Positions 14,298 to 37,793 of a DNA stretch of 64,000 nt are shown piece after piece. Source of the DNA: an uncultured Gammaproteobacteria bacterium (lineage in GTDB: Bacteria; Patescibacteriota; Microgenomatia; Levybacterales; UBA12049). Below the pieces are notes generated by a model that searched no databases, had not been told where the DNA came from, and was given only the letters and a program-made list of their open reading frames with translations. The DNA is taken from positions 26,926 through 90,925 of the forward strand of contig CAZWXQ010000006.1 in NCBI GenBank assembly GCA_964637955.1. Reading direction: 5' to 3'. Position 1 is the first letter of the stretch. Each line of letters begins with the position of its first letter. The translations under genes and the position numbers were made by a program.

Positions 14298-15649
14298 ATT
14301 CGGTTTTGAATTAGAGAATAGGCAGATTTAAGATTGAATGAAAACCTTGGCTTGTCATTTATTTCGAAAATATTTATATTTGCTTTTGCAATTAAATTTG
14401 TGCTGTTTCTTGTTTCACCGAGTGCAGTAGAGAAGTCAGTTAAAACTTTATTGAATGATTTTTCTTGTGATTTCAGAATTAAATTTCCAAATGACTGCGT
14501 ATTAAAATTAAAAGCTAAGTCGCTAGTTTTTAATTCAAATTTATCCATCAAAATTTCTATATCATCATTTTTAAGCATCTTAGACATTTTACTACTTAAT
14601 ATAAAAGGTTTACCATATGTTATGGTATGAGAGAAGCATCCCGAGCCTCCAATAAGTCCTCTGTAAGGGAAGACAACGAGGTCTGCAGCTTGGAAATATG
14701 TAGGGATTTCTTCTTCCGGTACAAACCCTGTTACTTTTATTCCATTATCTTTGGATGCAGTATTTAGAAGTTCTTTGTAGAATTTTTGATAATACTTTTC
14801 ATGCTTTAGAGAGTATGCTTCTCCACCTGCGATAACTAAGCGAATATTTTTATATTCTTTCTTTTCTCTTAATTTTTTAACGTTACTTATAATCCAGTCA
14901 GCACCTTTATAATAAGAAACAAAACCGAAATAAAGGATTACGAATTCATTTTCTTTTACTCCAATTTTTTCTTTTGATTCACTTACGGTTTCTTTAGTCG
15001 CGATTTTATCAAGCCAGAATCTATTTAGAACTATTTTTTCAGGATTTACATACTTGGTAAGTCTGTCATAAATAACCTCATCCATAACTACGAATTTATT
15101 TACAATTATTCCTAAACTTATATACATAGATTTTAATCCTAAGTTAAATATTTTTAATTTTAGAGATTTTTTACTTAGGCCAAAATGCTTTGCTATGAAA
15201 TCAAGATTATTTACTACATTATGCGAGAAATAGGTTATATGTTTTCGAGTTAATTTTATGAGCACCATAAATGGAAGTAAGAGTGCGAAGTTTTTAATTC
15301 CACCGTTTACGAAGAATTCAGAATGAACTTGTACATATTTTACGTTATCAAATTTAAATAACCATTTTAAAATAATAGGGAAGAGAGAAGGATGTTTTTG
15401 GTCAAAAATTCTAAGTACCAAAATTCTTCCATTTGCATAAAGCTTTGGACTGTTGTCTCCCTGGACCTTTTCAGCAAAAACTACAAAGCGTTTATTATAC
15501 TTTTTACTAATAGGTTCTATTAAAGTCTTGGTATACCACGCGATACCATAATTCTTTTCACCCTTTCTTCTCGATTCGGGATAATCAGAAATTACAATAA
15601 TAGTATCTTTATTATTAAAATCTTTGATAAATTCCATATTTATTAACAA
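14294..15649 (-). CDS. Family 1 (GT4-type) glycosyltransferase
   Basis: C-terminal RLVIAGGEAYSL...VTGFVPEEEIPTYFQAADLVVFPYRGLIGGSGCFSHTITYGKPFI matches the GT1/GT4 EX7E region. First gene of a minus-strand GT1 / GT-C / GT2 operon. Confidence 0.8.
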   Translation of the reverse strand: MLINMEFIKDFNNKDTIIVISDYPESRRKGEKNYGIAWYTKTLIEPISKKYNKRFVVFAEKVQGDNSPKLYANGRILVLRIFDQKHPSLFPIILKWLFKFDNVKYVQVHSEFFVNGGIKNFALLLPFMVLIKLTRKHITYFSHNVVNNLDFIAKHFGLSKKSLKLKIFNLGLKSMYISLGIIVNKFVVMDEVIYDRLTKYVNPEKIVLNRFWLDKIATKETVSESKEKIGVKENEFVILYFGFVSYYKGADWIISNVKKLREKKEYKNIRLVIAGGEAYSLKHEKYYQKFYKELLNTASKDNGIKVTGFVPEEEIPTYFQAADLVVFPYRGLIGGSGCFSHTITYGKPFILSSKMSKMLKNDDIEILMDKFELKTSDLAFNFNTQSFGNLILKSQEKSFNKVLTDFSTALGETRNSTNLIAKANINIFEINDKPRFSFNLKSAYSLIQNRI

Positions 15650-15976: not shown

Positions 15977-16837
15977 TCAGCTTTCGCGGAGCGGTCTACA
16001 GGACTGCGGAGCCCAGGCGGAAGCGACGTCGTCGCTTTTGTCTCCGTCCTGGATGTCCCAGTTCTGGGAAGTCAGCTTCGATCGCTCGGAGCTGTCCAAG
16101 TGCAGTAGCGCACCCGCAAGGCCATCGTCGTAGAGACGACCGCCGTTAGGTGCTTCAGGCACGCCGCCGTACTGGTTGACCAGCGCGGAGAACGTGTAGC
16201 ACTTGGAGGTTGGCGTCCAGCCACCCATCTTGAGGGGGAGACACCACGAGGGTGCGAAGATCGACTTGACGGTCGAGTTCGCTCCCTGGATGCCCCAGTC
16301 CTTCTTGTCGAGGATGGCCTTCTGGGCTTGGGTCACGTGGACCACGGCACCGATGATCGGCTTGTTGCCGGACTTCTTCCGGATCAGGCCGAAATCGGTG
16401 TTCAGGGCGTCCTCCTCGATGCCGAACTGGTTGTCCACCTTCTGGATGGTCAAGCAAGTCCGGGCTTTCGTTACCGAGGGGGTCCAGCCGCCGGTGGCGA
16501 GAGGGGCGCACCTGTTCGGGGTCCAAATGGAGCGTACGCGGCCTTCGCCTTGCACGAGCCATCCGGCATCCGAGAGGTCTTCTCTCTGGTCCTTGGTCAG
16601 GGAGACGACGACGCCTGCGCGCTGTCTTTTCCCGTTGTAGAGAACCCCGTTCTTCGCGGAGCCTCGCTGGACGTTGATCTGGATGCCGTAGAGGCGGTCC
16701 AGGGTGTTGAGGCTGAGGCACGAGGCCGCAGTCGCAACGTTGTCGGAACCCACGAGGGGAACCGAAGGGCTGACGCCGATCAGGCCGAGGGCCATGAACA
16801 GCGCTGCTACCAGGGTGATGAGCCGCGTTCGGCGCAT
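15977..16837 (-). CDS. Secreted protein with three tandem ~85-aa Cys-containing repeats (high-GC island 1)
   Basis: Signal peptide MRRTRLITLVAALFMALGLIGV, SD AAGGAGGA before ATG. Three repeats, each ending W.P..C.PL..GGWTP. GC3-rich codon usage, sharply different from flanks. Confidence 0.7.
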   Translation of the reverse strand: MRRTRLITLVAALFMALGLIGVSPSVPLVGSDNVATAASCLSLNTLDRLYGIQINVQRGSAKNGVLYNGKRQRAGVVVSLTKDQREDLSDAGWLVQGEGRVRSIWTPNRCAPLATGGWTPSVTKARTCLTIQKVDNQFGIEEDALNTDFGLIRKKSGNKPIIGAVVHVTQAQKAILDKKDWGIQGANSTVKSIFAPSWCLPLKMGGWTPTSKCYTFSALVNQYGGVPEAPNGGRLYDDGLAGALLHLDSSERSKLTSQNWDIQDGDKSDDVASAWAPQSCRPLRES

Positions 16838-16930
16838 CGGATCCTCCTTTCGAGGAGTGGGTGGTCATAAGACCCCAACCGGAACGATCCCTCAGGACCG
16901 AAGAACGGTATTCAGGTCTAGACCGGTGGT

Positions 16931-18145
16931 CTAGGACAGCGGACGGCAGCTCTCGGGCGACCACAGCGTGACGGTCTGGCCCTTGTTGGCCGAAGCGACC
17001 GACGCAGTGTTGAGATGCATCGTCCAGCCGGGGAGTGCCGAGTACCTCTGGTTCAGCCTGAGCTGAGCGCCAGCGAGGTCGCCCTCGTTGTACTGCCAGT
17101 TGATCTTGTCCTCCGGCGTGTTCGTGAGAGCCGCGAGATCGTCGGTCGTCAGACAGACATCCTCGGGATCCTCGCTGCCGGTGGTGCCAGGATCGACTGG
17201 ATCGGGATCGGGGCCCGTGGCCGCACCGGTCATGCCGGAGTTGGCGTGGACGTTCCCGATCTCGGGCTGCACGCATGCGAAGGGCGTGCTGAGTTCGCTC
17301 CAGGAGAACCCGGACGCCCACACGGTGACTTCGCCCTTGGCGATGACGTTCGTGTACTGCGTGGAGCCCTGGCCGTCGGAATCGACGAGATGCTCATGGT
17401 AGCCCTTGAGCTTCTTCGTGATCCGGCCGGGATCGTTGGTCGTGACCACGTTGGGCCAGATGACCACGATGTTCTTGCCGTCGACCTGGAGGCCGGCGAC
17501 GTAGTTGACGTCGACGATGCGGTCGCCGTCAAGGTCAAGGGAGTCTTCCTCGGGCTGGCGAGCCTGGAACTTGACCGCGTCTGCGGTGAAGCCGGCTGCG
17601 TCGAACCACGCCTTCCAACCGTCGTTGTGGAAGTACGGGTCCAGCTCCGCGAGGAACTGCTGGTGGATCGCGAGCGCGGGTGCGCCTGCGCATTCACCGT
17701 TCGGGTTGCCGGGCTCGGGCGAGGCGTCGACGGGGCACAGGAAGATGTTCCCGTTGCTGTCGGCGTTCGCGTAGTCCGGGCACTGATCGATGCTGTTGTC
17801 CCAGCAGTCGCCGTCCCGATCGTTGTCGGTGCGAGTGCCAGGCTTGCAGCCATCGAGGATCGCGGACTTGCCGTCGTCGTCACCGAGGTTGTCGATGAAC
17901 CCGCCGGCAGCCGCCGCGAAGTTGCTCATGAGGTTCCCGCCGTGCTGCGGCAGGTTGCTCCCGTTGATCGGGACCAGCAGTGCCCCCACGATGAGAGCGC
18001 TGGTCAGGATGATGGCGAGAGCCACGGCGAGGGTCTCGAGGACCTTCGCGATGGACTTCGACCAGTTGGGGCGCGTGCGCTGCACGGGCTGCAGGTTGCC
18101 CTGCGCCATACCGGGCACGGTAGCCCAGCTTGCCTGGTTCGTCAT
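16931..18145 (-). CDS. Membrane-anchored protein with Asp-rich Ca-binding-type repeats; C-terminus shares the island-1 repeat domain
   Basis: Start chosen at internal Met (MTNQASW..., SD AGGAGA upstream) rather than ORF-track 18334. TM VLETLAVALAIILTSALIVGALLV. DNDRDGDCWDN and DLDGDRIVD motifs. C-terminal ...GWTMHLN...VTLWSPESCRPLS matches the repeats of 15977..16837. Confidence 0.6.
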   Translation of the reverse strand: MTNQASWATVPGMAQGNLQPVQRTRPNWSKSIAKVLETLAVALAIILTSALIVGALLVPINGSNLPQHGGNLMSNFAAAAGGFIDNLGDDDGKSAILDGCKPGTRTDNDRDGDCWDNSIDQCPDYANADSNGNIFLCPVDASPEPGNPNGECAGAPALAIHQQFLAELDPYFHNDGWKAWFDAAGFTADAVKFQARQPEEDSLDLDGDRIVDVNYVAGLQVDGKNIVVIWPNVVTTNDPGRITKKLKGYHEHLVDSDGQGSTQYTNVIAKGEVTVWASGFSWSELSTPFACVQPEIGNVHANSGMTGAATGPDPDPVDPGTTGSEDPEDVCLTTDDLAALTNTPEDKINWQYNEGDLAGAQLRLNQRYSALPGWTMHLNTASVASANKGQTVTLWSPESCRPLS

Positions 18146-18437
18146 GGGAGAGAGTCTCCTTGTTGTGTGCGAGTGGATGCGTCCGACTCGGTTGATGGGG
18201 TGGGTAGCCCTGGGTTTTGATTCCCTGGACACCTCCTTGGTTGGAGAGCTTCTTGACGACCTTTCTTTCGTCTGGATTGGTTGGGTTGGCCGATTGACTG
18301 GGTAGAGAGCTGAATAGACGTGATGTCCACTCATCTCTTAAGTTAAGCCCATTCGAGGCAACGATTTCTAGCACTGTTGCTAGCACGTATCGCCTGAACT
18401 TAACTCATAACTAACCCCCAGAACTCGCGCAGCATAT

Positions 18438-19245: not shown

Positions 19246-21405
19246 ATGGAAAAAGATAGAGTAATACTTGAGATCAAGACTTCGAGAGTAAGTGAAGAGA
19301 CGACTGAGTCTATGGTTCAATTTTTAGCTTCGCTTACTGGGCTTCGGAAGCGGTTTATGCTCATGTGGAAGCTGGGGCATCCAATTAGCCTCGAGATAGC
19401 CATGTTTAACCAGACTATTCACTTCTACGTAACATGCCCAGCTTCACTAAAGACATTTATAGAAGGCCAGCTTACAGCCGCATATCACAGATCACTTATT
19501 GTAAATACAAAAGACTATATGCCTGAGATTCTTACCAATAAATCAACACTTGCTACGGGGCAAATGAAGCTTAGTTCAAGCTATCTCTATCCACTTAAAG
19601 TCTACAGTGAATTTAAGGATGTGGACCCATTGGCTTCACTTCTTTCATCTCTTTCAAAGGCCCAACCAAATGACAGAATAGTTATTCAATATCTTTTAAA
19701 TCCTGTTGGATCGAGTTGGCATAAAAGTGGAGAACGCCAAATGAATAGAAAGACTAAAGACGCTGCTGGAGTAGAGCATGCCAATCCTCAAGCAAAAATT
19801 ATCGGAGAAAAAATTGCGTATCATGGATTTAAGACTGCTGTAAGAATAGCAGTAAATTCTTCATCCTATGAAAGAAGTAGGTCCTTGATGTATGAAGTTG
19901 CGAATAGTTTTTCTTCGTTTAATAACCCGGGAGGAAATTCTTTGTCATATAAAAAACTTTATCTTTGGCAGAAAAATAGATTTATAAAAGCGATAAACAG
20001 GAGGAGTAAAAGGTTCGCGCCCTCAACTCAGATTTTAAATATAGAAGAAATTGCGACACTTTTCCATTTTCCTACAGAACAACTTTCTAAAGTTCATTCT
20101 ATTTCATGGCATAAGGTAGTTCTTTCAGAGCCGCCTGAAAATTTACCTATTGCTGAGGGTCTCTCAGAAGAAGAGAAAGCAGATCTTAATTTCTTCGCTT
20201 CCACGGAATTTAAAAATAAACAGACTACTTTCGGAATTAAATCTAAGGACAGAAGAAGACATGTTTATATCATCGGAAAAACTGGAGCAGGAAAGTCTAC
20301 TCTCATTGCGAATATGGCTATAAATGATATGAGAAACAAAAGAGGATTTTGCATCATTGATCCGCATGGAGATTTGTGCCAGGTCTTACTAGATTACATT
20401 CCAAGCTACAGAGTAAATGACGTAATTTATTTGGATCCTGCGGATCGAGAGAGATCATTTGCGATAAATCCACTTGAAATAAGTGAGCCGCATCAAAGGG
20501 AGCTAGTAGTTTCAGGAATTGTATCGATTTTCAATAAACTTTACGGCCATTCTTGGGGTCCGAGGCTCGAATATATACTTAGAAATACCTTGATGAGTGT
20601 AATCGATATGCCGGATGCGACACTTCTTATGGTGCCTGAAATGCTTTCAAATGATGCATTCCGAGCAAAAGTGGTAGCAAATTTAACAGATCCTGTTCTA
20701 AAAAGTTTCTGGGAAAACGAATTCGCCAATTACACAGATAAACTTAAGGCAGAATCTATAATGCCAATCCAAAATAAAGTCGGGCAGTTCGTAAGTAGTA
20801 CTGTTATTCGAAATATAATTAAGAGTCCTAAGTCCACAATTGATCTTCAAAAAGTAATGGATGAAGGTAAGATTGTTTTAGTTAATTTGTCACAAGGACA
20901 GCTAGGGGAGGATAACGCAGCACTTCTTGGCGCAATGCTTATTACCAAGATTCAGTTGGCTGCTATGAATAGAGTAACTCAAAAGGAAGAGGATAGGCGA
21001 GACTTTTATCTTTATGTTGATGAGTTCCAGAACTTCGCCACGTCATCATTTGTTAAAATATTGTCCGAGGCTCGCAAGTATAGATTGAATCTTATATTGG
21101 CTAATCAATATATAGCTCAGGTGCCTGAGGATGTCAGGTCTGCGATTTTCGGAAATGCCGGAACTATGATGTCATTCCTTATCGGAGCTGAAGATGCACC
21201 TTTTATGGCGAAAGAATTTAGTGAGAGGTTTGAAGAAAAAGATCTATTGTCTCTAGGAAACTACCAGACTATCTTAAAGCTTGCAATCGATAACATAAGT
21301 CAGTCTCCATTCCTGGCTCAGACTCTGCCTTTGCCGCGATCTGTTACTCAGAATAGGGAAAAGGCGATTCGCTCTTCAAGAGAGAGGTATACGAGACCGA
21401 TATAA
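19246..21405 (+). CDS. VirD4/TraG/TraD-family-like P-loop ATPase (coupling-protein-like), cytoplasmic, with ~330-aa N-terminal domain of unknown function
   Basis: Walker A YIIGKTGAGKST, then CIIDPHGD and YLYVDEFQNF...ILANQ motifs typical of TrwB/VirD4 and DUF87/HerA-like ATPases. No N-terminal TM helices. Confidence 0.65.
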   Translation: MEKDRVILEIKTSRVSEETTESMVQFLASLTGLRKRFMLMWKLGHPISLEIAMFNQTIHFYVTCPASLKTFIEGQLTAAYHRSLIVNTKDYMPEILTNKSTLATGQMKLSSSYLYPLKVYSEFKDVDPLASLLSSLSKAQPNDRIVIQYLLNPVGSSWHKSGERQMNRKTKDAAGVEHANPQAKIIGEKIAYHGFKTAVRIAVNSSSYERSRSLMYEVANSFSSFNNPGGNSLSYKKLYLWQKNRFIKAINRRSKRFAPSTQILNIEEIATLFHFPTEQLSKVHSISWHKVVLSEPPENLPIAEGLSEEEKADLNFFASTEFKNKQTTFGIKSKDRRRHVYIIGKTGAGKSTLIANMAINDMRNKRGFCIIDPHGDLCQVLLDYIPSYRVNDVIYLDPADRERSFAINPLEISEPHQRELVVSGIVSIFNKLYGHSWGPRLEYILRNTLMSVIDMPDATLLMVPEMLSNDAFRAKVVANLTDPVLKSFWENEFANYTDKLKAESIMPIQNKVGQFVSSTVIRNIIKSPKSTIDLQKVMDEGKIVLVNLSQGQLGEDNAALLGAMLITKIQLAAMNRVTQKEEDRRDFYLYVDEFQNFATSSFVKILSEARKYRLNLILANQYIAQVPEDVRSAIFGNAGTMMSFLIGAEDAPFMAKEFSERFEEKDLLSLGNYQTILKLAIDNISQSPFLAQTLPLPRSVTQNREKAIRSSRERYTRPI

Positions 21406-27071: not shown

Positions 27072-27920
27072 ATGACGCAACGTCAAAGTCAAGGCAAAGT
27101 TTTAGATGATTCAGGCACAAATCTTATAAGTATCAGAGAATTTGCTCAAATTTGTCGTACTACTCCAAGAACTATAAGGTTTTATGATCAAAAAGAATTA
27201 TTAAAACCCAGGTACATTGATAAATGGACAAGTTATAGATATTACGATGTAGAGCAGGTAAAAGACTTTCTTATGATTAAATTTATGCAGAATTTCCATA
27301 TCCCTCTTTCTCAAATAAAACTAAATTTACAAATAAAATCAAATGACTCGTATTTAAAAGAACGTTTAGTTGGTTTAAGAAATGAAATAGAGGAGAGTAA
27401 AAAAGAAATTGAATTCTTAGAGAAAATTCACACATTGTTCTTTGATGATAAAAATATTAAAAATATATTTAAGAAAGAGGAAATTGGGCCATTTTATTTG
27501 TTTGGTTGTAGGTTTGAAAAAACTTCTTATGATCTGATCGATAAGCATAGGGAAAATGTGAGACAGGAAGCAGGAAAGCAGGGTATTAAATTCAATAAAG
27601 ATCTTGTCGTATATTTAGATTCGAAGTTTAAGCCAAAAAATACTAGTATCGAAGTTTATGTAATTTGCGAAAAAGATTATTCAAGTAATAAATTTTTAGC
27701 TGAAAATTATATATATAAGTTTTTTAATAAAACTAAAGCTTTAACGTATGATTACCAAGGTCCTGAAATATATTTCATCATAATTTATCAGAGATTATTT
27801 TATTTACTTAATAAGATTAAGATTAAGATGAATGATAATAATTTTGAAATTTATGAAGGTGCAGGGGAAAAGAGTTCAATTTATGCTTTTGAAGCAAAAT
27901 TAATTTTTCCTGTAGGCTAG
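27072..27920 (+). CDS. MerR-family HTH transcriptional regulator with C-terminal effector-type domain
   Basis: ISIREFAQICRTTPRTIRFYDQKELLKP is a MerR N-terminal HTH, followed by a coiled-coil. Confidence 0.65.
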   Translation: MTQRQSQGKVLDDSGTNLISIREFAQICRTTPRTIRFYDQKELLKPRYIDKWTSYRYYDVEQVKDFLMIKFMQNFHIPLSQIKLNLQIKSNDSYLKERLVGLRNEIEESKKEIEFLEKIHTLFFDDKNIKNIFKKEEIGPFYLFGCRFEKTSYDLIDKHRENVRQEAGKQGIKFNKDLVVYLDSKFKPKNTSIEVYVICEKDYSSNKFLAENYIYKFFNKTKALTYDYQGPEIYFIIIYQRLFYLLNKIKIKMNDNNFEIYEGAGEKSSIYAFEAKLIFPVG

Positions 27921-28895: not shown

Positions 28896-30989
28896 CTATC
28901 TAGCTGGGGAAGGAGATACGCTTGGTCTTGCTGATGGTGAAGGTGTAAGGCTTGTTGTTGGGCCTGGAATTTTAACAGGTGGATTTTGTTCTGGAAGTTG
29001 AGCTTGTGGTTGATTTACTTGAAGATCACCTTGATTAACTGAAGGCTGCGTGTTTGCTTGCTGACTATTTGCTGCTTTTTGTTGAAGAGCAGCAATCTCT
29101 TTATCAATTACGTCAACACTAGCTTTATCTTTAATTACTAATTGTCTTACTGTTTGATATTGTGTAAGTGCTCCTTGGAAGTCTCCTTTTTGCTCTAAAG
29201 CATGACCTAAATTATAGTATGCGTTAGCAAAGTCTGGTTTTAGGCTGGCAGCATATTGGAATTGTCTGATTGCATTATCCCATTGACCCAATTGATAGTA
29301 AATTCCACCATAATTTATGTATTCTTGAGGGTTATTTGGATCAAGAATGATCGCCTGTTGGTTTGCGAGTAATGCAAATTGATCTGCATTTTGACCAAAT
29401 CCGATGAGTGCTCTATAAATAGATGAAAGATTCTGCCAGTTAACTGATGTTTGAGGAGAAACTGTGCTTGCATTTCTGCCACTATTTATAGCTTGTTGGA
29501 TAAGTTGATATATTGTTTGTTGTTGTTCTTGGGTAGGTTGTGTGCCTTGAGGGATACTTAAAGCCAAGTTGTTAGCTATAGCAAGGTTAATTTGAGAGAA
29601 TATTCTGTGATATCCATCCCTTTGTGGGAACATTCTGATAGCGTCTGTTTGATATTTGTATGTATTCTGAGCATCGTTCTTTGAAGCGTAGATGAGTGAT
29701 TTTTGGAATAAGTAGTCTGAAGCTAAGAATCTCACGCTAACTATGCCTATTACGAATGTGAATACCCCAACTAGTACTGCAAATGCGACTGGAAGTAAGT
29801 TAGAGTGTTCTGAGCTTGTTCTTGAGTTTGGATCAGTAAGTGCAAATACGCCTTGTCTAAGTGTAACTAATCTTAAATCTACATCAAAGAAGTTTGAATT
29901 GTGATGTTCTCCAAATCCTCGACTTACACTATATAAAGCTAATATTACGAAGAATAACATTATTGAAGAATATGAGAAAGGAAGTATGAAAGCTAGTACT
30001 ACTGCCAAGATTAAAGGAGTAAATAATGGTTTAGTTCTGAATATTTTATAGATTAAGAATAAGAATGACAGAATGCCAAGAAGTCCTGTTGTAGCTATTA
30101 ATTCAAGCGCGAATGTAGATGATCTTAAGAATGATAGATTCCAAAGGGCTTCACTTGCGTTAAATGTTGCTGGCTTGAATCTGGTGAAGTCAGTTAAGAA
30201 TGTGCCTAGGCCTGATCCCATTAAGAAGCCTTGAACCACACGGCCATTATCCTGAGATATTGCTGCGAATGCTGTTTGAAAACCTGTTTGATATGGTAAG
30301 ATAACTGGCTTTTGAAGAGTAAACATGGCAATTGCTGTAATAACTACACCTAAAAGAAGTACGAAAGCTCCTCCTACAAAGATTAAGCTACCTTTCTCTG
30401 CTACGGCTTTCTTTTTGAGAGCTGGAAGAGCCATGTAAAGAGCCATAGCTAAAATGAGAACTAAGTACATTAGTTGATCGAAGAGTGATCCAAATGTAGT
30501 GAAAGTCTGAACTTTAGCAAATGAAAATGGAAGCAAATAGATCTTTAGGTATGAAAGAAGAGTAATAGCTGAAACTAAAATTCCTCCACCAATCAACATT
30601 CCCAGCAGAAACTTGAAATCTTGCTGTTTCTTAGCCGTGTTGGTGATTATGAAGAAGAATAGTGCTGCGAACATGAAGGGAACAAATGTAATAAGAGAAT
30701 CAAATCTGTTTACTGCAAATACGCTTGAAAGGAGAGCTGCTAATATTAATAGTACTATTGGAAGATCAAATGGGGTTCTTCTGAGCCTTACGTTCTTGGT
30801 AAGAATTCCTCTAGCTGCCATTAAAACCAAGCCTGAAATTACTACAAAAGCAATACCTGCTTGTTTTGGAATTAGATATGCATCTGTTGTAATAGATGCT
30901 ACTAGAACAGGAAATAAAAGTAAATAAATACCTTGTATTACTACAGAAGCTTTATCTAATTGATGGGCATGTTTGTTTCTGTTTTCCAT
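28896..30989 (-). CDS. O-antigen ligase/polymerase (Wzy_C)-like polytopic membrane protein with C-terminal TPR repeats and Pro-rich tail
   Basis: About 11 TM helices. TPR-like AIRQFQYAASLKPDFANAYYNLGHALEQKGDFQGALTQYQ. PSPSARPSVSPSP tail. Confidence 0.65.
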   Translation of the reverse strand: MENRNKHAHQLDKASVVIQGIYLLLFPVLVASITTDAYLIPKQAGIAFVVISGLVLMAARGILTKNVRLRRTPFDLPIVLLILAALLSSVFAVNRFDSLITFVPFMFAALFFFIITNTAKKQQDFKFLLGMLIGGGILVSAITLLSYLKIYLLPFSFAKVQTFTTFGSLFDQLMYLVLILAMALYMALPALKKKAVAEKGSLIFVGGAFVLLLGVVITAIAMFTLQKPVILPYQTGFQTAFAAISQDNGRVVQGFLMGSGLGTFLTDFTRFKPATFNASEALWNLSFLRSSTFALELIATTGLLGILSFLFLIYKIFRTKPLFTPLILAVVLAFILPFSYSSIMLFFVILALYSVSRGFGEHHNSNFFDVDLRLVTLRQGVFALTDPNSRTSSEHSNLLPVAFAVLVGVFTFVIGIVSVRFLASDYLFQKSLIYASKNDAQNTYKYQTDAIRMFPQRDGYHRIFSQINLAIANNLALSIPQGTQPTQEQQQTIYQLIQQAINSGRNASTVSPQTSVNWQNLSSIYRALIGFGQNADQFALLANQQAIILDPNNPQEYINYGGIYYQLGQWDNAIRQFQYAASLKPDFANAYYNLGHALEQKGDFQGALTQYQTVRQLVIKDKASVDVIDKEIAALQQKAANSQQANTQPSVNQGDLQVNQPQAQLPEQNPPVKIPGPTTSLTPSPSARPSVSPSPAR

Positions 30990-31053: not shown

Positions 31054-34000
31054 TCAATTTATAAGAATCCAATTAAAAGGAACTGATTTCTCAATTGCTT
31101 TAGATAACCCAACGGAAAACGATTCTCCAGGGACTTGTCTCAGTAGATATACGCTCTGATTTGGGATGCTAGTTCTTGGAGTGATATATATTAGTGAATC
31201 CTTGGTGACTAAAGGATTTCTGATAGTTAGTTCATTTTTATAAGGCATTATGTCTGCAGTTCCTGCTGATCCTGTGGCTATTACCTCAGTTTCGCTTACG
31301 GCCAAGGCTTTATGTATAAAGCTAAGATTTAGCTTATTAAAAGTCCCTGATCCTGAAGCTTCTACGTCACCCTTATAATTAAATGTTAATACTGCTGAGC
31401 CCGTGCCAGTTTTAAATTCAATTTTGGACTCGTTTATATCATCAGATTTAAAGTCAAATATAAGATCACGACCGGGGATTGGAGCAATTATATTTGCCAA
31501 AAGTTCGCCATTAACCTGCGCATTTTTAGCAAAGTATGCGTTTCCTCCTACTTTTAGATTTCCTTCAGTATCAAATTCTACAAGGCCTCCTGCGATGGAG
31601 ACACCTCCTTGTCTTAAGGGTTGAAGTTCAAGGTTTCCTCCGAGAACATTTATGCTTCTTCCAGCAATTGAAAGCTGTGCGCCTACGAATAGTCTCTCGG
31701 CAATATTTGCTTCATAGAAGCTGGTTTGACCCCATGAAACGAGACTTTCCGTAAAGGTTCCTGAGCTTGCGCTAAATCCGGCAATATCATTTGAGCCATT
31801 AGCAGATGCCAAGTTTGTAGTAGAAGCGGATTCACTACTATTATAATAGTAGTTATTAGAAATATAAGTGTTACTTGCTGAAGAAGAGGATAGGTTAATT
31901 CCTTGAAGCTTGGCCAAGGCTTCTTCAGAAAGATCTAGTTGGTCAGCTATGATTTTGTCTGCTCTAAGGGTTCCTGAAATGCTCGCATCGTTTGTTTGTA
32001 ATGAGTTTGAGGCTAGATTGCCTGAGAAGCTGGCATTTCCTTCTGCGTCAATTGAAGCTATGGCTGAATTTGAGGCATTAAAGACTTCAACCTTTGAAGA
32101 CTTATCGCTTGTCGGCAATTTGATTACAAGTTTTTCTCCAGACTTAGGCTTGATAATATCTGACTCAATGATAGGTGAGGAAAGTGCGATTTGTTTTTGG
32201 CCAACTCTCTCGTCGACTATACTATATATATAGTCCCTAATATTTTTCCCTGCAATTGTAATATCTTCACTAGCGATTGCCAGTGTATCAACTGAAAGAT
32301 TTTCAATGTGGGCTACTATTATATATGCGCTACTTACCGTCAGTCTTCCGAGCTCTAGATATCCAGCTTTTATGTTGGCTGCGAAAAGATCTGAAAATGC
32401 CTCAACTTTAGTTATTGGTAGATCATCATAGGTTATTCCGAAGCCGTTTTCTTGATTTGGAGTAATATTGAGTGAATCTGCGCGAGTAATGAATTTTTCA
32501 CTACTATTATAAGTAGCTTTCACAAATATCATTACTCCATCCTGATTTTCATCCCAATCTTCAAGTGCTTGGCCTATGACTGGTCCAGGATCTGTTGCTC
32601 TCATTATTTTTCCGGGAGTACTTGATGACGTTACATAGTCACCTTGAAAAATTTTGCCATTTTCATTGCTTGCCTTAACGATGATTCTTCCGCTAAGCGC
32701 AACAGGAACTTGTTTTTGTTCTCTGTATTGATTTCCATTAAAGCCTCCGAGTAAAAGGCCAGGAGCTGTTGATATTGCTCCAATTGCGCGTGGGTCATAA
32801 GGAGTTGAGCTTCTTTTCACAAAAACACCTCTTTGAGGATCCATAGTTACGACTTCGCCTGCTGTTAAGCTGGTGTCATATGTTGGATAATTCTCAGCCA
32901 CATCATAAACACTGGTAGCCGTGGAGGATGAGTAGATTACCCCTTCAGAATTATTGTCATTGTTACAATCCGAATCACTTCCAACACAGAGTCCACCACC
33001 TGAGATTTGAACTTTTGACTCGGGGTTAACTGTTCCTATCCCAACATTACCACCATTTCCATTATTTGACATGACTATTAGATTGCCTGCAATTGTCGCT
33101 GTCGGGAGGTTAGTGCTAACATTTATGATCCCAAATTTGGCGGAAGAGGTGGAATTTCCCCCAACTAAGAAGTCATTTGTAGAATTACTCAAAAAAACCG
33201 ATCCGAGCGATTGGTTAAGGTTTGAGTTTTGTGATCCCGATGAGCAAGGTGCCCAAGTTGGTGAGGATCCATTTGAAATAAGACATAATCCGCTTGCTCC
33301 AATTGAAAGTCTGTTTAATCCATTTGAATTATTAGCATAGAGCATATCACCTGAATTGTAACTTGTGATTCCAGTTCCGCCAAAATTTACGCCAAGTGAA
33401 TTATTCACGCTCCATATGCCTTGATTAATTACTGGTACGCCAGTGGAGGAGGAAGTGTTTAGTCCAGTTCCTCCATAAGTGTTTGTGATAAGTCCAGCTT
33501 TCCATGATCCGGTATTTATGGTTCCATTTGTAATGCCAAGTCCATTAATGTTTCCAGAGGTTAAAATATTTCCACCGTTATCAACTAAGAATTTTGTTAT
33601 CGCTCCAGTCGATGCAATTATAAGATCCCCGGTCGAGTTTTGGTTAATACTTAAAATAGCTTGTCTCCCAGAGGTTCCATTTACGAGAAGCATATCTTCG
33701 ACTAAAACTGCTCCTTGTACCAGAGAATCGCTGTTTGATGTATTTTTAATTCCTTTTCGTATGTCAATCGAACCTGAGCCATCTGGTGAGAGAATTATGT
33801 CGCCATTGGTTTGCGACGTCGTAGAGAGAACTAGTGTTTTTCCTGAGATAGTAAAAGTTCCACCGGTTGCTTGAAAAGTCGGACTAGCATTTCCACCAAT
33901 AGTCAAATTTCCAGATGAGTTTAAGGAGAGTAGAACATTTGAAGTCTCTGAAGAGCTAGTAATTGGTTCAAGCCCTTGAACTGTTTCTGAGTTTTGAGAA

Positions 34001-35490
34001 TATGCAACAGTGGCGATTGGTTGTCTAGGAGTTAGTTCTTTTGTTTCATCGACTGTTATTCCCAAAAAGAGGGAAGGATTCTCGGAGAAAAGATTTTGAG
34101 GGATTGGTGTGTTTTTCCCCAAAACTACATTAAAAATTCCATCAGCATTTGGAGTAGCCGGAATTACTTCTTGCCAAAGAAGAGCAGAGCCAGATGCTAC
34201 TGCGTTTTTATAAAGCCCCATTCTTAGATTTGTTTCATAATTTATAGCTTGTCCACTGGCGTCTGTTATTCTTCCTTGGAAAGTAAGCACTCTTGAAGCA
34301 GTTGAAGGATTAGAGCCTAATACTGATAGACTTTTTTGATTTACTGAATTTACTCTTGATAAAAGTAGGTATGAAAATAAAATCACGGTCAGCATAAGAA
34401 GAGAAAGGTGAAAATAGGAAACAAATGTATATGAATGATATCTTTTGTACCAATTTGGTCTTGAATATCTACTAATGTGGATGATTTTTTTATGAACGGG
34501 CATTCCTTCGGTTGAAATGCTTGAAGGAGAATAGGTAGATTTAGATATGTTTTTGACTGAAAAATTATTTTGAGTATTAGCAAATGTATTAAATGTTGAT
34601 TTTGCGTTTTGTTCAAAGACTGGTTTTCCCTTAGCGATCCAAATAGCCTTATCAGCTTGAGATAAAGCGGCAGCAAAAGGGGTAACCAGTAGAGTTTCTG
34701 CCGCTAATTTTAGGCCTATATTTGATTTTTGGGCTATTCTAACCGGGGGAATACTAGAATATTTGATATCCTTTGATACATTTTCTTCAGTTAAATTTGG
34801 GGTAAAAGCGGGTATTATTAATTTATCGTCTAGCCTCGATTCGTTTAGCACTTGAATATTTGATCTGATAAGTTCGTGCTCAGTCGCCCAATTTGAGTAT
34901 CTTCGCAGAGATGAAAGCTTTCTATTAACAGAAGCAGGGGAGAGAAGTAGTGAATTTAGAAGATAATTTTTAAATTCATTTATTGAATTATTATTTACAT
35001 TATTTAAGGCTAAGCTAGCTTTGCTGTTAGCATTTGGAGCGTCTATTATGCTAGCCTCAAGCCAGTTTTTGTACTGTTTTAAGTCTATGATATAGTTTTT
35101 TATAGTAAGATTAGATGCCTTTTCTGTGTATAGATAATTTTTAAATTCTCTTATTCTCCACGTGTCTTGATCAATTTCACGATCAATTTCAATTTTAGCC
35201 TCAAATGGAGATTGTGAAACAATGCCTTGAGAATGAAGGAACGTAAAAAATTTACGAAGACTTGAGATGTTTCTTTCAACTGAGGACGCGGAATAGATTG
35301 AAAGTGAGGCTAATTTGAAGCTTTCTATTAATTCATAATTAATTTCGAGCGGATTAAAGCCCATATTAAATTGCTTTTCATACCATTTAGTAAACCTATT
35401 CACATCTGATACATAGTTTTTCACGGTAACTTTTGAAGCTGGGTGGCTTTGATTGAGTAAATAGTCTCGAAATTGTTCAGATAAGTTCAT
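31054..35490 (-). CDS. Giant (1478 aa) surface protein: N-terminal triple tyrosine-recombinase-type SAM-like (core-binding) modules, one TM helix, Gly/Ser/Thr-rich extracellular repeats, C-terminal domain shared with 1..5109
   Basis: aa 5-95 FRDYLL...VTVKNYVSDVNRFTKWY...SSVERNISSLRKFFTFLHSQGIV resembles XerC/D N-terminal domain. Two further partial copies (EFKNYLYTEKASNLTIKNYIIDLKQYKNWL; EFKNYLLNSLLLSPASVNRKLSSLRRYSNWA). TM YTFVSYFHLSLLMLTVILFSYLLL. No recombinase catalytic domain. Confidence 0.7.
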   Translation of the reverse strand: MNLSEQFRDYLLNQSHPASKVTVKNYVSDVNRFTKWYEKQFNMGFNPLEINYELIESFKLASLSIYSASSVERNISSLRKFFTFLHSQGIVSQSPFEAKIEIDREIDQDTWRIREFKNYLYTEKASNLTIKNYIIDLKQYKNWLEASIIDAPNANSKASLALNNVNNNSINEFKNYLLNSLLLSPASVNRKLSSLRRYSNWATEHELIRSNIQVLNESRLDDKLIIPAFTPNLTEENVSKDIKYSSIPPVRIAQKSNIGLKLAAETLLVTPFAAALSQADKAIWIAKGKPVFEQNAKSTFNTFANTQNNFSVKNISKSTYSPSSISTEGMPVHKKIIHISRYSRPNWYKRYHSYTFVSYFHLSLLMLTVILFSYLLLSRVNSVNQKSLSVLGSNPSTASRVLTFQGRITDASGQAINYETNLRMGLYKNAVASGSALLWQEVIPATPNADGIFNVVLGKNTPIPQNLFSENPSLFLGITVDETKELTPRQPIATVAYSQNSETVQGLEPITSSSETSNVLLSLNSSGNLTIGGNASPTFQATGGTFTISGKTLVLSTTSQTNGDIILSPDGSGSIDIRKGIKNTSNSDSLVQGAVLVEDMLLVNGTSGRQAILSINQNSTGDLIIASTGAITKFLVDNGGNILTSGNINGLGITNGTINTGSWKAGLITNTYGGTGLNTSSSTGVPVINQGIWSVNNSLGVNFGGTGITSYNSGDMLYANNSNGLNRLSIGASGLCLISNGSSPTWAPCSSGSQNSNLNQSLGSVFLSNSTNDFLVGGNSTSSAKFGIINVSTNLPTATIAGNLIVMSNNGNGGNVGIGTVNPESKVQISGGGLCVGSDSDCNNDNNSEGVIYSSSTATSVYDVAENYPTYDTSLTAGEVVTMDPQRGVFVKRSSTPYDPRAIGAISTAPGLLLGGFNGNQYREQKQVPVALSGRIIVKASNENGKIFQGDYVTSSSTPGKIMRATDPGPVIGQALEDWDENQDGVMIFVKATYNSSEKFITRADSLNITPNQENGFGITYDDLPITKVEAFSDLFAANIKAGYLELGRLTVSSAYIIVAHIENLSVDTLAIASEDITIAGKNIRDYIYSIVDERVGQKQIALSSPIIESDIIKPKSGEKLVIKLPTSDKSSKVEVFNASNSAIASIDAEGNASFSGNLASNSLQTNDASISGTLRADKIIADQLDLSEEALAKLQGINLSSSSASNTYISNNYYYNSSESASTTNLASANGSNDIAGFSASSGTFTESLVSWGQTSFYEANIAERLFVGAQLSIAGRSINVLGGNLELQPLRQGGVSIAGGLVEFDTEGNLKVGGNAYFAKNAQVNGELLANIIAPIPGRDLIFDFKSDDINESKIEFKTGTGSAVLTFNYKGDVEASGSGTFNKLNLSFIHKALAVSETEVIATGSAGTADIMPYKNELTIRNPLVTKDSLIYITPRTSIPNQSVYLLRQVPGESFSVGLSKAIEKSVPFNWILIN

Positions 35491-36028
35491 ATTTATGATT
35501 CCCGAAATAAAGTATTAAAAATGCTCTTTTAGCCTTGAGATTATACGGATTATACTGATTATTCTTGTGTAATAAATTAATTACTGTTATACAATAAGAA
35601 TAGTGTAGCTTTGTGCCTGAAGTCAAGAACCTGGAGTAGTGTGAAATGATATATTTAGTTATAATTAGGTAGAATAAATAACGATTTTTAAAGTTTTGTG
35701 AAAAGTAATTCTTTGTGTAAATTCAGCTTTGGACTGTGAAAAACTTAATTTTCCACAGAATAATATCTAAATTTTCATGCTTGGCGGTTGGTTTGTCATT
35801 TTTGGCGAAGAAGAGTGGTATGTGCTAGCTTTCTGACGTTTTTATTTAGCCTCAATTGCAAATTCCTTATCAGTAGCATGTCTCGCACTGCTAAATTTTC
35901 AAGTTATTATGTGTTTATTTACGCGTTAAATAAGCCTGTATGCCACCTTTAATATGTTTGCTAATGCCTTAGTGGTGATTTAGTTTGGTTTTAGCTTCGT
36001 TATCCAAGTTATTATACCAAGATTTAAT

Positions 36029-36973
36029 TTACTTTATTCTGTTTTTTAACTTTGCAGCTCTTATAAGCCAAGTAAGTATAGTTATCAGAGAAACTGTAAC
36101 TAGTAGACCTTTTACTGGCAATGCGAAAAATACTTTTGATTCGTGTAGTAGGGGGCCATTTTCAGAAATTGCCACATTAAGATCAGCCTTATATATTCCT
36201 AGAAGAAAGTTTTCATTCCAGGCTAACTTGCCGTTTGAGTTAGCTATAATTCTGCTCGAGTTTTCTAGTATCGTGGTTGGTTCAATTTCGACATTTCCTA
36301 CAGTTTGGCCAAACATGTTTTTTATGACTAAATTTCCTTTTGAAGTAACAAAATGCTTGCTGGTATTACTTATTTCTAATTCAGCTTCAACTGGACCATT
36401 TGAAACAAATCGGGGTATGGTAAATTTGGAAATAGCTCCGGTTGATTTATCATCTGATCCAACAGTAAGAAGAAGATTTACGCCTAAGCCTGCTTTATTC
36501 AAAACTATATTTGTCTTAGCTTCGCCAGAAGCTGTTTGAGATAAGAAAATAGCTGTGAAATAATAATCTCTTTGTTCAACTTCATCAGTAACCGGGATCA
36601 TTAGCAAGAGATTTTTCCTTTGAAAAGGTGGCACTGTGAGCTCGCTTAAGGGTTTTCCCTGGTCTGATATAGTTACTTTTTCAAAGAAAGATTTATATTC
36701 TTCTGAGAGTTCTGGATCAAAATTAGGTTCTCCGCTAAAATCAGAATTAGCCTTGAATGGGCGAAGAAAGATATTGTAAGTTATATTTTGATCCGATGAA
36801 TTATAAATATTTATCGGAGCTTTCACGACAGAAGGTGAGCTTGCGCGAATCTTAATTACGCTTGGGTTTACGCTTGTGGAAAAATTTTGAGCACTAGCGT
36901 TTTGTGCAAATGTAGTTAAAAGCATAAGCGCAATTAGAAGTATAATTTTCAATTTTAAATTTTTAATTTTCAT
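36029..36973 (-). CDS. Secreted protein with C-terminal TM anchor (hypothetical)
   Basis: N-term MKIKNLKLKIILLIALMLLTTFAQNASA is a signal peptide; first 10 codons encoded by AT-rich repeat. C-term VKGLLVTVSLITILTWLIRAAKLKNRIK. Confidence 0.55.
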   Translation of the reverse strand: MKIKNLKLKIILLIALMLLTTFAQNASAQNFSTSVNPSVIKIRASSPSVVKAPINIYNSSDQNITYNIFLRPFKANSDFSGEPNFDPELSEEYKSFFEKVTISDQGKPLSELTVPPFQRKNLLLMIPVTDEVEQRDYYFTAIFLSQTASGEAKTNIVLNKAGLGVNLLLTVGSDDKSTGAISKFTIPRFVSNGPVEAELEISNTSKHFVTSKGNLVIKNMFGQTVGNVEIEPTTILENSSRIIANSNGKLAWNENFLLGIYKADLNVAISENGPLLHESKVFFALPVKGLLVTVSLITILTWLIRAAKLKNRIK

Positions 36974-37049: not shown

Positions 37050-37793
37050 CTAATAACTAGGAATAGCTATGAAAGTAACTGTATTTGAATAGGGGCCTCG
37101 AGGCTGAGATGAGGAAACATTCACTTTGTAAGTAATCGAAGCTTCCTGGCCTAAGCTAGAGCTCTCAGAGAGCATGGTGGTTGGAGTCTCATCTTTTGAT
37201 GCATCTGAGAATTGTTTGAAATAATTTTCTCTATCAAAGCTAGTGTCATTTTCCACGCAGCTAGATTTACTAGAATCACATCTATATCCAAATCCATAAG
37301 TAAGAGTGCTGTCCCATTTGTCTGAAGTATAATCTGTGCATTTTCCATTATCACAAGTCGTGTCTGGGATTTTCACGCCTTTTTTAGCTTCGGTTAATTC
37401 ATGATTTTCAATTCCTGTAACTTTATAGCCAGCCTTATTCATGTTTTTAACTTTCAAAATATTGCTTCTGGTCACTGGATTGGTTGGGGAAAGTGAGCCG
37501 AAATCGATATTAGTGCTTGAAATAGAAAAACTGAATGGGTTATTTTCTGGAGAATAGTTTTTTCCCAAATCAACTTTATAGTTCACGCCTGAAAGCTCAT
37601 TACCCGTATTAGATGTGTCTATATCGATATTATTTGATGTAGTCGGGTCTGCAAAAGAATTGATGTTTTCAATCTGAACTTTATACATCGAATTCTGAGA
37701 TGACTGGGCACGAACCAAAGGCATAGAAATAAACAAATAAGCAAATAAACAAATAAGCAAATAAATTTTTAATTTTAAATTTTTAATTTTCAT
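37050..37793 (-). CDS. Secreted hypothetical protein (247 aa)
   Basis: N-term MKIKNLKLKIYLLICLFAYLFISMPLVRA signal peptide, again starting inside an AT-rich repeat copy (37755-37830). Cys-containing middle region. Confidence 0.5.
   Translation of the reverse strand: MKIKNLKLKIYLLICLFAYLFISMPLVRAQSSQNSMYKVQIENINSFADPTTSNNIDIDTSNTGNELSGVNYKVDLGKNYSPENNPFSFSISSTNIDFGSLSPTNPVTRSNILKVKNMNKAGYKVTGIENHELTEAKKGVKIPDTTCDNGKCTDYTSDKWDSTLTYGFGYRCDSSKSSCVENDTSFDRENYFKQFSDASKDETPTTMLSESSSLGQEASITYKVNVSSSQPRGPYSNTVTFIAIPSY

Follow-up and report, generated by a model that had tools for sequence, protein, structure and literature searches.

What domains of a DNA recombinase are doing at the cytoplasmic end of a giant surface protein is the question raised by a gene in a 64,000-nucleotide stretch of contig CAZWXQ010000006.1 (assembly GCA_964637955.1), the whole of which is hereafter called the window. 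The gene (31054..35490, minus strand) stands in the window's list of open reading frames (ORFs) as an unbroken ORF of 1478 aa, and its product is identical to one database record (P0053). A preliminary description, made from the nucleotide sequence, had claimed that core-binding (CB) modules of the tyrosine-recombinase type, also called SAM-like, form without any catalytic partner the cytoplasmic N-terminus of a single-pass giant surface protein, and sequence, predicted structure, and topology agree with this central claim. We hold with high confidence the architecture, which comprises tandem CB domains, a juxtamembrane region, a transmembrane (TM) helix, and a phage-fibre-like ectodomain, as well as the family described below, in which collinear homologues of the 1478-aa protein were found at more than 80 loci. 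The sequences are already public under misleading names, and for the architecture itself no description was found: our literature search returned no paper describing a SAM, TM, and fibre architecture, the nearest being a one-line mention of a 'tail fibre-like protein' in a preprint on the Pam pilus. Host recognition and response in the candidate phyla radiation (CPR)/Patescibacteria are largely unknown and the genomes are poor in classical signalling systems, and a lineage-wide chain that joins a host-facing fibre to candidate DNA-binding modules would offer a concrete, testable route from the surface to the chromosome.

Core-binding modules, membrane anchor, and fibre

The first module (residues ~3-95; 35206..35484, minus strand) is a four-helix bundle on which PF02899, the NCBIfam XerC model, AlphaFold2 (AF2), and Foldseek converge. 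Phage_int_SAM_1 (PF02899) matched residues 5-89 with E = 5.7e-17 for the whole protein in the Pfam scan, residues 1-102 scanned alone covered profile positions 2-83 of 83 (E = 1.6e-10), and the XerC model matched the module at E = 2.8e-19, so that the likeness of residues 5-95 to the N-terminus of XerC, XerD, and phage integrases, remarked on at the outset, is upheld by profiles and structure alike. Of the ~295 positions of the XerC and XerD models, only 2-92 were matched, with scores of 69.6 and 62.2 bits where the cut-offs are 335 and 330, and the catalytic domain PF00589 gave no match at E <= 1 in the 1478-aa protein and none in any family member, as the preliminary description had likewise reported for the catalytic part. 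Lacking that domain, the protein cannot recombine DNA and is not a tyrosine recombinase.

The second module (residues ~108-213; 34852..35169, minus strand), identified by PF02899 and AF2, carries an insertion of ~20 aa between helices 2 and 3. Its match at ~112-213 was obtained with the SAM_1, SAM_4, and SAM_5 models of Pfam, and the modules match PF02899, PF13495, and PF13102. Scanned alone, residues 103-164 covered PF02899 profile positions 1-44 of 83 and residues 165-222 positions 48-81; joined as residues 103-222, they covered positions 1-81 of 83 at E = 6e-10. The 'two further partial copies' of the preliminary description are the two halves of one domain parted by the insertion, and its three SAM-like modules become two complete ones, although the recombinase-type nature of the modules stands on Pfam, AF2, and Foldseek. 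A third copy was rejected on the same sub-fragment scans, in which residues 223-382 gave no SAM match. The two modules are separated by a linker of ~15 residues and, compared directly, share 36% identity over their first two helices (E = 3e-6).

The N-terminal AF2 model, made for residues 1-410 with a family alignment of 21 sequences, contained two confident four-helix bundles and disordered spacers at residues 221-240 and 292-323. The bundles were modelled at a predicted local distance difference test score (pLDDT) of ~90, with helices at residues 3-12, 20-41, 52-63, and 68-87 in module 1 and at 113-122, 127-147, 167-180, and 185-204 in module 2, where the insertion forms an extra helix at 154-163. 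The best PDB matches of the model in Foldseek were all CB domains of recombinases (lambda Int, XerA, IntI, and Brujita Int), with a probability of 1.0 and a root-mean-square deviation of 2-3 Å over ~95 columns, the E-value being only ~0.16 because the CB domain is small. Scans with Pfam and NCBIfam found no winged-helix family in the N-terminal domains. By sequence, the only solved chain that matched the SAM modules was chain 14 of PDB entry 9i5v, a Porphyromonas gingivalis protein named 'RaiA' (401 aa, 400 in the paper) with a Xer-like N-terminus; it was rejected as a hint of ribosome binding, just 34 hpf-like residues being modelled in that structure.

The canonical recombinase motifs T..NY..D...F..W and S..R.lSsLR.Ff.fL are retained. 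In module 2 the invariant motifs are LTIKNY..D and NRKLSSLR, the latter being the longest invariant run of the N-terminal alignment, and polar or basic residues predominate among the invariant ones (K131, N132, N189, R190, K191, S193, S194, and R196). These sit on helices two and four of the module (127-147 and 185-204 in the AF2 model), which we take to be the equivalents of the CB helices that lie in the DNA major groove in Cre, lambda Int, and Xer.

Between the modules and the membrane lies a conserved juxtamembrane region (residues 214-354; 34429..34851, minus strand; family alignment A1), predicted to be cytoplasmic, with the motifs YSxFPPxRLxQK, WxxxGxPxF, NIxKxxYAP, and RPxWYKxYHSY and an amphipathic helix at residues 248-286. 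This region had no Pfam match and was modelled at low to medium confidence, medium for the long helix 248-286. The single TM helix that follows (residues 355-388; 34327..34428, minus strand), a putative signal anchor with a hydropathy peak of 2.06, bears out the earlier placement of one TM segment after ~350 aa: one strong hydrophobic segment was found at ~355-378, and AF2 modelled a helix at 355-388. A weaker hydrophobic stretch at 258-277 lies within the AF2 helix 248-286; it is not required for the topology, because a short-linker relative (P0049), in which module 2 leads directly into the TM helix, has neither the juxtamembrane region nor the weaker stretch.

An N-in, C-out (type II single-pass) topology is supported by several features of the sequences. 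On reading the sequence, the first 20 residues are hydrophilic and without an N-terminal signal peptide. Lysine and arginine were more frequent before the TM helix than after it in 68 of 72 homologues, with a mean of 3.85 such residues in the 20 positions before it and 1.92 in the 20 after it, and the mean net charge over the same 72 was +20 for the part before the TM helix and -33 for the part after it. All four cysteines come after the TM helix, as two close pairs. The cytoplasmic N-terminus that had been claimed thus follows the positive-inside rule, and an N-terminus outside the cell, named beforehand as the finding that would speak against it, was not seen in the prediction.

The ectodomain is ~1100 aa long here and exceeds 5000 aa in some relatives. 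Its AF2 monomer model had an overall pLDDT of 55 and three confident domains, at residues ~400-490, ~860-990, and ~1400-1478. The first module (residues ~396-490; 34021..34305, minus strand; pLDDT ~80-88) is a predicted beta-sandwich that opens with the conserved motif PPRILSFQGRLTD and is kept across the family and in relatives without SAM domains; its residues 396-462 matched the NCBIfam model Bdello_MAT_N (NF053851) weakly (E = 4.2e-6, 26.7 bits against a cut-off of 60). A Gly/Ser/Thr/Asn-rich stalk follows (residues ~491-840; 32971..34020, minus strand), delimited by composition, with cysteine pairs at 736/749 and 835/842; its AF2 confidence was low, as one would expect of a monomer model of a fibrous oligomer. 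The next module (residues ~843-990; 32521..32964, minus strand; pLDDT 85-91) is a predicted beta-barrel resembling intramolecular chaperones and preneck appendages: PF23982 (XM1_gp53) matched residues 843-975 at E = 2.5e-4, below its cut-off, and the fold matched the C-terminal fragment of phi29 gp12 (3gqh; probability 1.0, E = 2.4e-3) and a preneck appendage protein of the viral model library BFVD (E = 2e-9, 28% identity). The C-terminal ectodomain (residues 991-1478; 31057..32520, minus strand) ends in a conserved beta-sandwich at 1400-1478 (...FNWILIN), with a pLDDT of 80-90 over the last 80 residues.

Fold matches of the ectodomain pointed consistently to phage. In the PDB they comprised the phi29 gp12 C-terminal fragment, the phi29 head-fibre base, the depolymerase of Klebsiella phage K64-1, the tailspike of cyanophage Pam1, lambda gpJ, and the R2 pyocin fibre, with marginal E-values of 6e-4 to ~1e-2. 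BFVD returned 84 matches at E <= 1e-3 (best 1e-11), which include preneck appendage, tail-fibre-like, 'intramolecular chaperone auto-processing', and K1-lyase C-terminal proteins. Residues 391-1478 used as a query recovered the same family, nearly all matches having SAM domains and many having Peptidase_G2 (PF11962) or Peptidase_S74 (PF13884), which are intramolecular chaperones of phage fibres and spikes; homologues exceeded the Pfam cut-offs, such as P0064 for Peptidase_G2 (26.5 bits against 25) and P0073 for Peptidase_S74 (42.1 against 22). The preliminary description had seen here more than 1000 aa of Gly/Ser/Thr-rich repeats, which holds for composition in parts (a G+S+T fraction of 0.34-0.43 over residues 500-900 and 1200-1300) but not for organisation: as modelled, the ectodomain is a mosaic of tail-fibre-like modules with three globular domains rather than a simple repeat.

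Spread and conservation of the family

Residues 1-410 used as a query returned ~50 clusters at E <= 1e-29, mostly from metagenome-assembled genomes (MAGs) of Patescibacteria, whereas true recombinases reached only E ~1e-4 against the family, a gap that indicates an ancient split. A survey of one genome per GTDB species found relatives in at least 146 species-level genomes, the meaningful titles being almost all Candidatus Levybacteria, which are ultrasmall bacteria of the Microgenomatia (Patescibacteria/CPR), or Levyibacteriota, and an exhaustive profile search over 1.84 billion representatives (clusters at 50% identity) returned 656 proteins at E <= 1e-30. This number is an upper estimate for the double-SAM family because the profile also spans the first ~200 ectodomain positions; the best 150 of the 656 are 415-6048 aa long, the shorter ones being truncated entries. 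Many MAG records that hold the gene and its neighbours (L003, L005-L011, and others) are titled 'uncultured Gammaproteobacteria bacterium', which looks like a placeholder or a wrong label.

Wherever a locus extends far enough downstream, one ORF of 1346 to more than 3100 aa begins with the SAM modules and has only one TM helix, near residues 340-460. The survey of related genomes that the preliminary description had called for therefore recovered the fusion at every locus with room for it, and more than 80 independent genomes share both the start and the architecture. Among 33 full-length members, mean pairwise identity was 0.48 in module 1, 0.50 in module 2, 0.43 in the juxtamembrane region, and 0.45-0.58 in the ectodomain regions; from these alignments the CB modules appear to be under purifying selection and as conserved as the remainder of the protein.

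These data bear on the suggestion, made in the preliminary description, that a decayed integrase had been captured as an anchor. That the N-terminus is a functionless integrase remnant, produced by chance fusion, decay, or misassembly, draws on the public annotation, in which family members are named 'site-specific integrase, partial' or 'XerD', and on the shortness of some entries (230-700 aa). The short members were rejected as true stand-alone proteins, being products of truncation at contig ends or of frameshifts. In a long-read metagenome assembly (L001, 10001-16730), the window protein is collinear over residues 1-1478 across several reading frames, that is, the gene is frameshifted, and in a second long-read assembly (L002, 10001-14627) a 677-aa product is followed by an overlapping 868-aa ORF with Peptidase_G2, so that in these two loci frameshifts split the gene into an 'integrase-like' product of ~415-677 aa and one or more large downstream ORFs. 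Such splitting, together with truncation at contig ends, probably feeds the 'site-specific integrase, partial' labels. With the same architecture in more than 80 genomes and at least 146 species-level genomes sharing it, SAM modules as conserved as the rest of the protein, and an ancient split from recombinases, a decayed or accidental remnant is excluded for practical purposes, and we regard it as vanishingly improbable. The consequence for annotation is that hundreds of proteins labelled site-specific integrase or XerD have inflated the counts of mobile elements in CPR genomes and hidden a major surface protein.

The upstream repeat and relatives with other N-termini

The intergenic region upstream of the SAM-fibre gene is ~540 bp, which is long for such compact genomes, and contains blocks conserved in genomes whose proteins are 84% and 69% identical to that of the window (three-genome alignment). 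One of these is a gene-specific cis-element (35529..35563, minus strand) that reads aATAATCa-GTATAATCC-GTATAATCT-CAAGGCTAA and consists of 2-3 direct 9-bp repeats and a conserved tail. Across the family its core is (g)ATAATCn-GTATAATCc-GTATAATCT-cGAgGCTaa, the 9-bp unit GTATAATCN occurring two to three times before CG(A/T)GGCTAA. The form GTATAATC was found upstream in 64 of 77 loci and in 4 of 71 controls, and the tandem form within 400 nt upstream, on the strand of the gene, in 68 of 76 loci. In 1.08 Mb searched on both strands, 87 of 95 tandem-form matches lie there and 6 of the other 8 slightly further upstream of the same gene; in the 64-kb window the tandem repeat occurs once, at 35539-35555.

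When all of the metagenome collection was scanned without bias for a degenerate 25-nt pattern, 73 exact matches were obtained, 68 of them usable (at least 300 nt of downstream sequence), and 65 of the 68 precede a family member within 700 nt whose identity is 25-55%. Two shorter contigs also show the first residues of the gene after the element, and in the three exceptions, of which L138 is one, the upstream architecture is kept with another or an inserted gene downstream.

A promoter-like pair, TTGACT-18 nt-TATTCT (35597..35626, minus strand), was found by a promoter scan, the family consensus being TTGACA-N17-TATTCTAATTGTAT; a TTGACA-N17-TATTCT-like pair precedes the element by 41-89 nt in 64 of 64 loci, at a varying distance. 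At one locus (L033, 7530-7560 and 7632-7826) the repeat block, in three copies, is inverted relative to the gene and the promoter is not. An invertible promoter of the fimS type, that is, a phase switch, is not supported by these data and was rejected, the orientation being the same in almost all loci. The same locus has a small ORF for a TM peptide between element and gene, and L139 has a comparable one after the element. A structured RNA in the 5' untranslated region was also rejected: RNAalifold gave no consensus structure for the element (energy 0.0), and Rfam returned nothing at the gathering score, its one sub-threshold match being a chance microRNA. A likeness of the repeat to the arms of Xer dif sites was set aside as possibly a matter of chance in AT-rich sequence. 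Further upstream, a cluster of TTT(T/A)CACA motifs (35697..35742, minus strand) is enriched against controls, TTTTCACA occurring upstream in 54 of 77 regions and in 6 of 71 controls, in 1-4 copies; both the window and L085 have two of them arranged as the inverted repeat TGTGGAAAA-N5/6-TTTTCACA.

Some relatives carry the fibre behind other N-termini. P0141 (1303 aa, locus L084) is collinear with the 1478-aa protein over ~800 aa of ectodomain to the last residue (31% identity, E = 2e-82), and its N-terminus is a tandem pair of MerR/HTH_17 domains (MerR E = 9.5e-22), after which come a TM segment and collagen-like repeats. P0287 (L087) has the same design with two MerR domains, and P0290 (L088) is a third MerR-variant relative; P0161 (L089, L090) combines HTH_28/HTH_32, a transposase-type helix-turn-helix (HTH), with TM segments and the same fibre module. 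Other relatives have half a SAM domain and a TM helix (P0129, P0148), a short tail and a TM helix (P0136), or nothing but a signal peptide (P0147). At the three MerR-variant loci the 9-bp element is absent, and the leader motif TATGCAAA(C) is present instead, in tandem with a period of 10-11 nt in two of them: L084 has GCAAAC(A/C)C in three copies, L088 has ATCTATGCA in two, and L087 has a single copy. The MerR-variant repeat can be written as GCAAACCC x3. Upstream of the HTH_28/HTH_32 variant in L089, AAAGCTCAGA occurs four times. The 9-bp element was not found in the leaders of the half-SAM variants or of those without a DNA-binding domain; in the leader of the half-SAM P0129 (L164, 180-205), AGACAAC occurs twice with a period of 8 inside the palindrome GTTAACTAG...CTAGTTAAC. 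The window itself holds a MerR gene at 27072-27920, which was dismissed as a membrane-tethered analogue: it has a MerR HTH and, on reading the translation, with no hydropathy analysis run on it, no obvious hydrophobic TM stretch, and looks like an ordinary soluble regulator.

Three unrelated DNA-binding folds in the same position argue for DNA binding, and we lean slightly towards the CB modules binding DNA. With two tandem modules in the protein and two to three tandem 9-bp repeats before its gene, both kept across the same depth of divergence, autoregulatory binding is the most parsimonious reading; that the repeat is the binding site of the CB modules, and so a candidate operator, is nevertheless a tentative proposal that we hold to be somewhat doubtful. 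The tethering of DNA at the membrane that the preliminary description had put forward, or its binding there, remains plausible, with the substitution by unrelated DNA-binding domains and the gene-specific repeat as indirect support.

Several considerations weigh against this reading. A recombinase CB domain clamps DNA jointly with the catalytic domain, and binding by a CB domain on its own may accordingly be weak. Perfect TATAAT hexamers occur within the repeat, which might be nothing more than a series of -10 boxes in tandem or else a sigma-dependent pause site, and an exclusive association with one gene is to be expected of any conserved gene-specific promoter. At one locus (L138), the full upstream architecture precedes a surface protein without SAM domains. 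The relatives that lack a DNA-binding domain (P0147, P0136) indicate that the fibre itself needs none, and the covariation of HTH variants and leader motifs comes from 3-4 loci in distant lineages and is confounded with phylogeny. On the side of the protein, the weaker hydrophobic stretch at 258-277 leaves some uncertainty about how the juxtamembrane region is placed on the membrane, and the trimeric state and surface exposure that we presume for the fibre rest on fold similarity.

Much of this would be accommodated if the CB-like bundles had lost DNA binding and were modules for protein interaction or structure, with the upstream repeat as a strong gene-specific promoter made of tandem -10 boxes or a pause site. 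The bundles might hold the anchor in its N-in orientation as a folded plug, assemble three chains ahead of export, or offer a docking site to partners such as the TPR protein encoded downstream, Sec, or YidC. Homologous fibres headed by nothing more than a signal peptide (P0147) or a short tail (P0136) fit such a role, as do P0129 and P0148, whose half SAM domains would hardly make a canonical DNA-binding bundle, the TATAAT hexamers and the L138 element already named, and the conserved juxtamembrane region, which points to other conserved cytoplasmic functions. Left unexplained, however, are the invariant polar and basic residues (NRKLSSLR, TIKNY) and the strongly basic charge; the replacements are again DNA-binding folds (MerR HTH twice, HTH_32) and not arbitrary domains; and a core promoter would not usually keep to a period of exactly 9 nt, vary in its distance from a separate conserved TTGACA/TATTCT promoter, or occur once in inverted form. 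We rate this structural role as unlikely on the whole, though a serious contender, and continue to prefer DNA binding.

Gene neighbourhood, working model, and known systems

The locus is chromosomal, near rho, an M23/LysM peptidase gene, leuS, and comEA, and four genes travel together: those for a 247-aa protein, a 314-aa protein, the SAM-fibre, and a 697-aa TPR membrane protein. The 314-aa neighbour lies upstream (36029..36973, minus strand), on the same strand and adjacent in 61 of 82 loci, and has a signal peptide, a beta-rich body, and a C-terminal TM helix, with no family match and no PDB match. Further upstream, the 247-aa neighbour (37050..37793, minus strand), present in 60 of 82 loci, is a predicted secreted, Pam-pilin-like protein that matched the NCBIfam model CPR_pilus_PamT over positions 7-241 of 241 (E = 7e-10, 38.7 bits against a cut-off of 240) and CPR_Pam_pilin_C at E = 1.4e-7 (31.7 bits against 55). 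The two neighbours share a near-identical signal-peptide start (MKIKNLKLKI...). Downstream, the 697-aa protein (28896..30989, minus strand) is a polytopic membrane protein with C-terminal TPR repeats (Pfam TPR families), and its gene directly follows that of the fibre in 28 loci and in L001, L002, L085, L086, and L164.

Pam pili are donor-strand-exchange pili specific to CPR and commonest in Saccharimonadia and Microgenomatia; their chaperones are membrane-anchored and PapD-like with a C-terminal TM helix, and what is called a 'tail fibre-like protein', for which no integrase-like or DNA-binding N-terminus was described, is found consistently beside the pam operon (10.64898/2026.03.03.709456). 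The cluster here resembles that operon in the 247-aa neighbour, aligned along the full PamT model and matching the pilin-C model, in the layout of the 314-aa neighbour, whose architecture would be that of the chaperones PamC/PamD or of the anchor PamR, and in the fibre-like companion gene. It differs in being minimal, with one pilin-like and one chaperone-like gene, and in scoring far under the curated cut-offs. The 314-aa and 247-aa pair suggests a minimal Pam-like pilus cluster in Levybacteria, and the fibre gene is probably part of a Pam-like surface apparatus; if the family is the same, the companion 'tail fibre-like protein' is hereby defined in Microgenomatia and the Pam neighbourhood extended.

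Elsewhere in the window, an island of 64% GC at 15977-18334, in a genome of ~35% GC, encodes two membrane-anchored proteins (467 and 286 aa) without a Pfam match, with spurious overlapping ORFs on both strands; it may have been acquired recently from a foreign source or reflect a chimeric assembly. The window also holds a set of envelope genes (within 46-5109, 6008-8701, 11328-15649, and 19246-21405), which comprise a 1687-aa Gly_rich_2 protein, an 897-aa CarboxypepD_reg protein, a large GT-C-like membrane protein followed by a GT1 glycosyltransferase, and a TraG/VirD4-like coupling ATPase (DUF87, TrwB_AAD_bind).

In the model that we propose, the protein would be a membrane-tethered, one-component, DNA-binding surface fibre, possibly autoregulated; taken as a whole, we give it a little less than an even chance. 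The chain would be inserted N-in by its signal anchor, and the fibre would be exported and fold, probably as a trimer, aided by the chaperone-like module. It may join the Pam-like pilus apparatus or work beside it, and the TPR membrane protein may modify or assemble it. Each chain would show two basic CB bundles on a flexible tether at the cytoplasmic face, and these would bind double-stranded DNA, preferably the tandem repeat in the leader of their own gene, setting the transcription of a very costly gene. This might amount to plain feedback, or it might make transcription responsive to the state of the fibre by way of clustering or proteolytic release, broadly in the manner of ToxR, TcpP, and CadC. 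A stronger version, which we consider speculative and rather unlikely, is that contact or assembly of a Pam-associated fibre is reported to the chromosome through an operator read by the CB modules, either membrane-bound or after proteolytic release, without intermediate signalling proteins, and that related lineages built the same device independently with MerR- and transposase-type HTH domains and their own tandem repeats.

Alternatively, DNA binding by the CB modules may have little sequence specificity and serve to anchor the nucleoid to the envelope where the fibre is rooted, with a role in chromosome organisation or segregation or in DNA handling. In its favour are the strong basicity of the cytoplasmic part and the high avidity that would come from two CB modules in every chain and from the chains of a fibre, probably three in number; in cells as small as those of CPR, much of the nucleoid lies within reach of a membrane protein, and such a tether was among the first suggestions made for the gene. 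It leaves unexplained, however, both the deeply conserved gene-specific repeat and the other repeats before the HTH variants, and the only DNA-handling gene nearby, comEA, is parted from the fibre gene by leuS, and its linkage looks like ordinary conserved gene order. We regard this tether as improbable. The proposed model of an autoregulated fibre has the practical merit that, with an uncultured organism, its candidate DNA site can be tested in vitro. If it is true, the CB domain of recombinases has been reused outside recombination; if the stronger, contact-reporting version is true as well, this is the first known use of that domain as a stand-alone transcription-factor module, and a new class of contact-sensing one-component system exists in bacteria that live on other cells.

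Set beside known systems, the protein shares with the tyrosine recombinases (XerC/XerD and phage integrases) the CB domain in sequence, motifs, and fold; unlike them, it has no R-K-H-R-H-Y active site, two CB domains in tandem in one chain, and a TM helix with an ectodomain of more than 1000 aa, and its gene is a chromosomal core gene and not a mobile element. Its ectodomain folds resemble those of phage tail fibres, tailspikes, and the phi29 gp12 preneck appendage, and homologues carry Peptidase_G2 or Peptidase_S74. Unlike phage fibres, it has its own TM anchor and no virion baseplate, the chaperone-like module lies in mid-protein with ~500 aa after it, and the gene belongs to a conserved chromosomal cluster and not to a prophage. 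RsgI-type anti-sigma factors of Clostridium thermocellum are likewise single-pass proteins that link the surface to transcription, with a cytoplasmic N-terminal regulatory domain and a large extracellular module; their cytoplasmic domain, in contrast, binds a sigma factor and not DNA, and their ectodomains are carbohydrate-binding modules.

The mosaic adhesive trimer (MAT) proteins of Bdellovibrio are encoded by the cell itself and form phage-fibre-like adhesive fibres in a bacterium that lives on bacteria (PMC10769870). The likeness includes the weak Bdello_MAT_N match (26.7 bits against 60), and host lineage and envelope type differ. We know of no cytoplasmic DNA-binding domain in MAT proteins. 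Closest in layout are ToxR, TcpP, CadC, and PsaE, which combine an N-terminal cytoplasmic DNA-binding domain, a single TM helix, and an extracytoplasmic C-terminus and bind repeated sites near promoters from the membrane (PMC5430869, PMC8546550, PMC11484849). The fibre protein differs from this group in having two CB bundles rather than an OmpR-type winged helix, and a giant phage-fibre-like outer part rather than a small periplasmic sensor. With a different DNA-binding fold it is not a member of the ToxR family by homology, but with the same layout of a single TM helix, a predicted N-in orientation, and an outer C-terminal domain, the ToxR-like regulators are a possible analogue for the way in which it is proposed to work.

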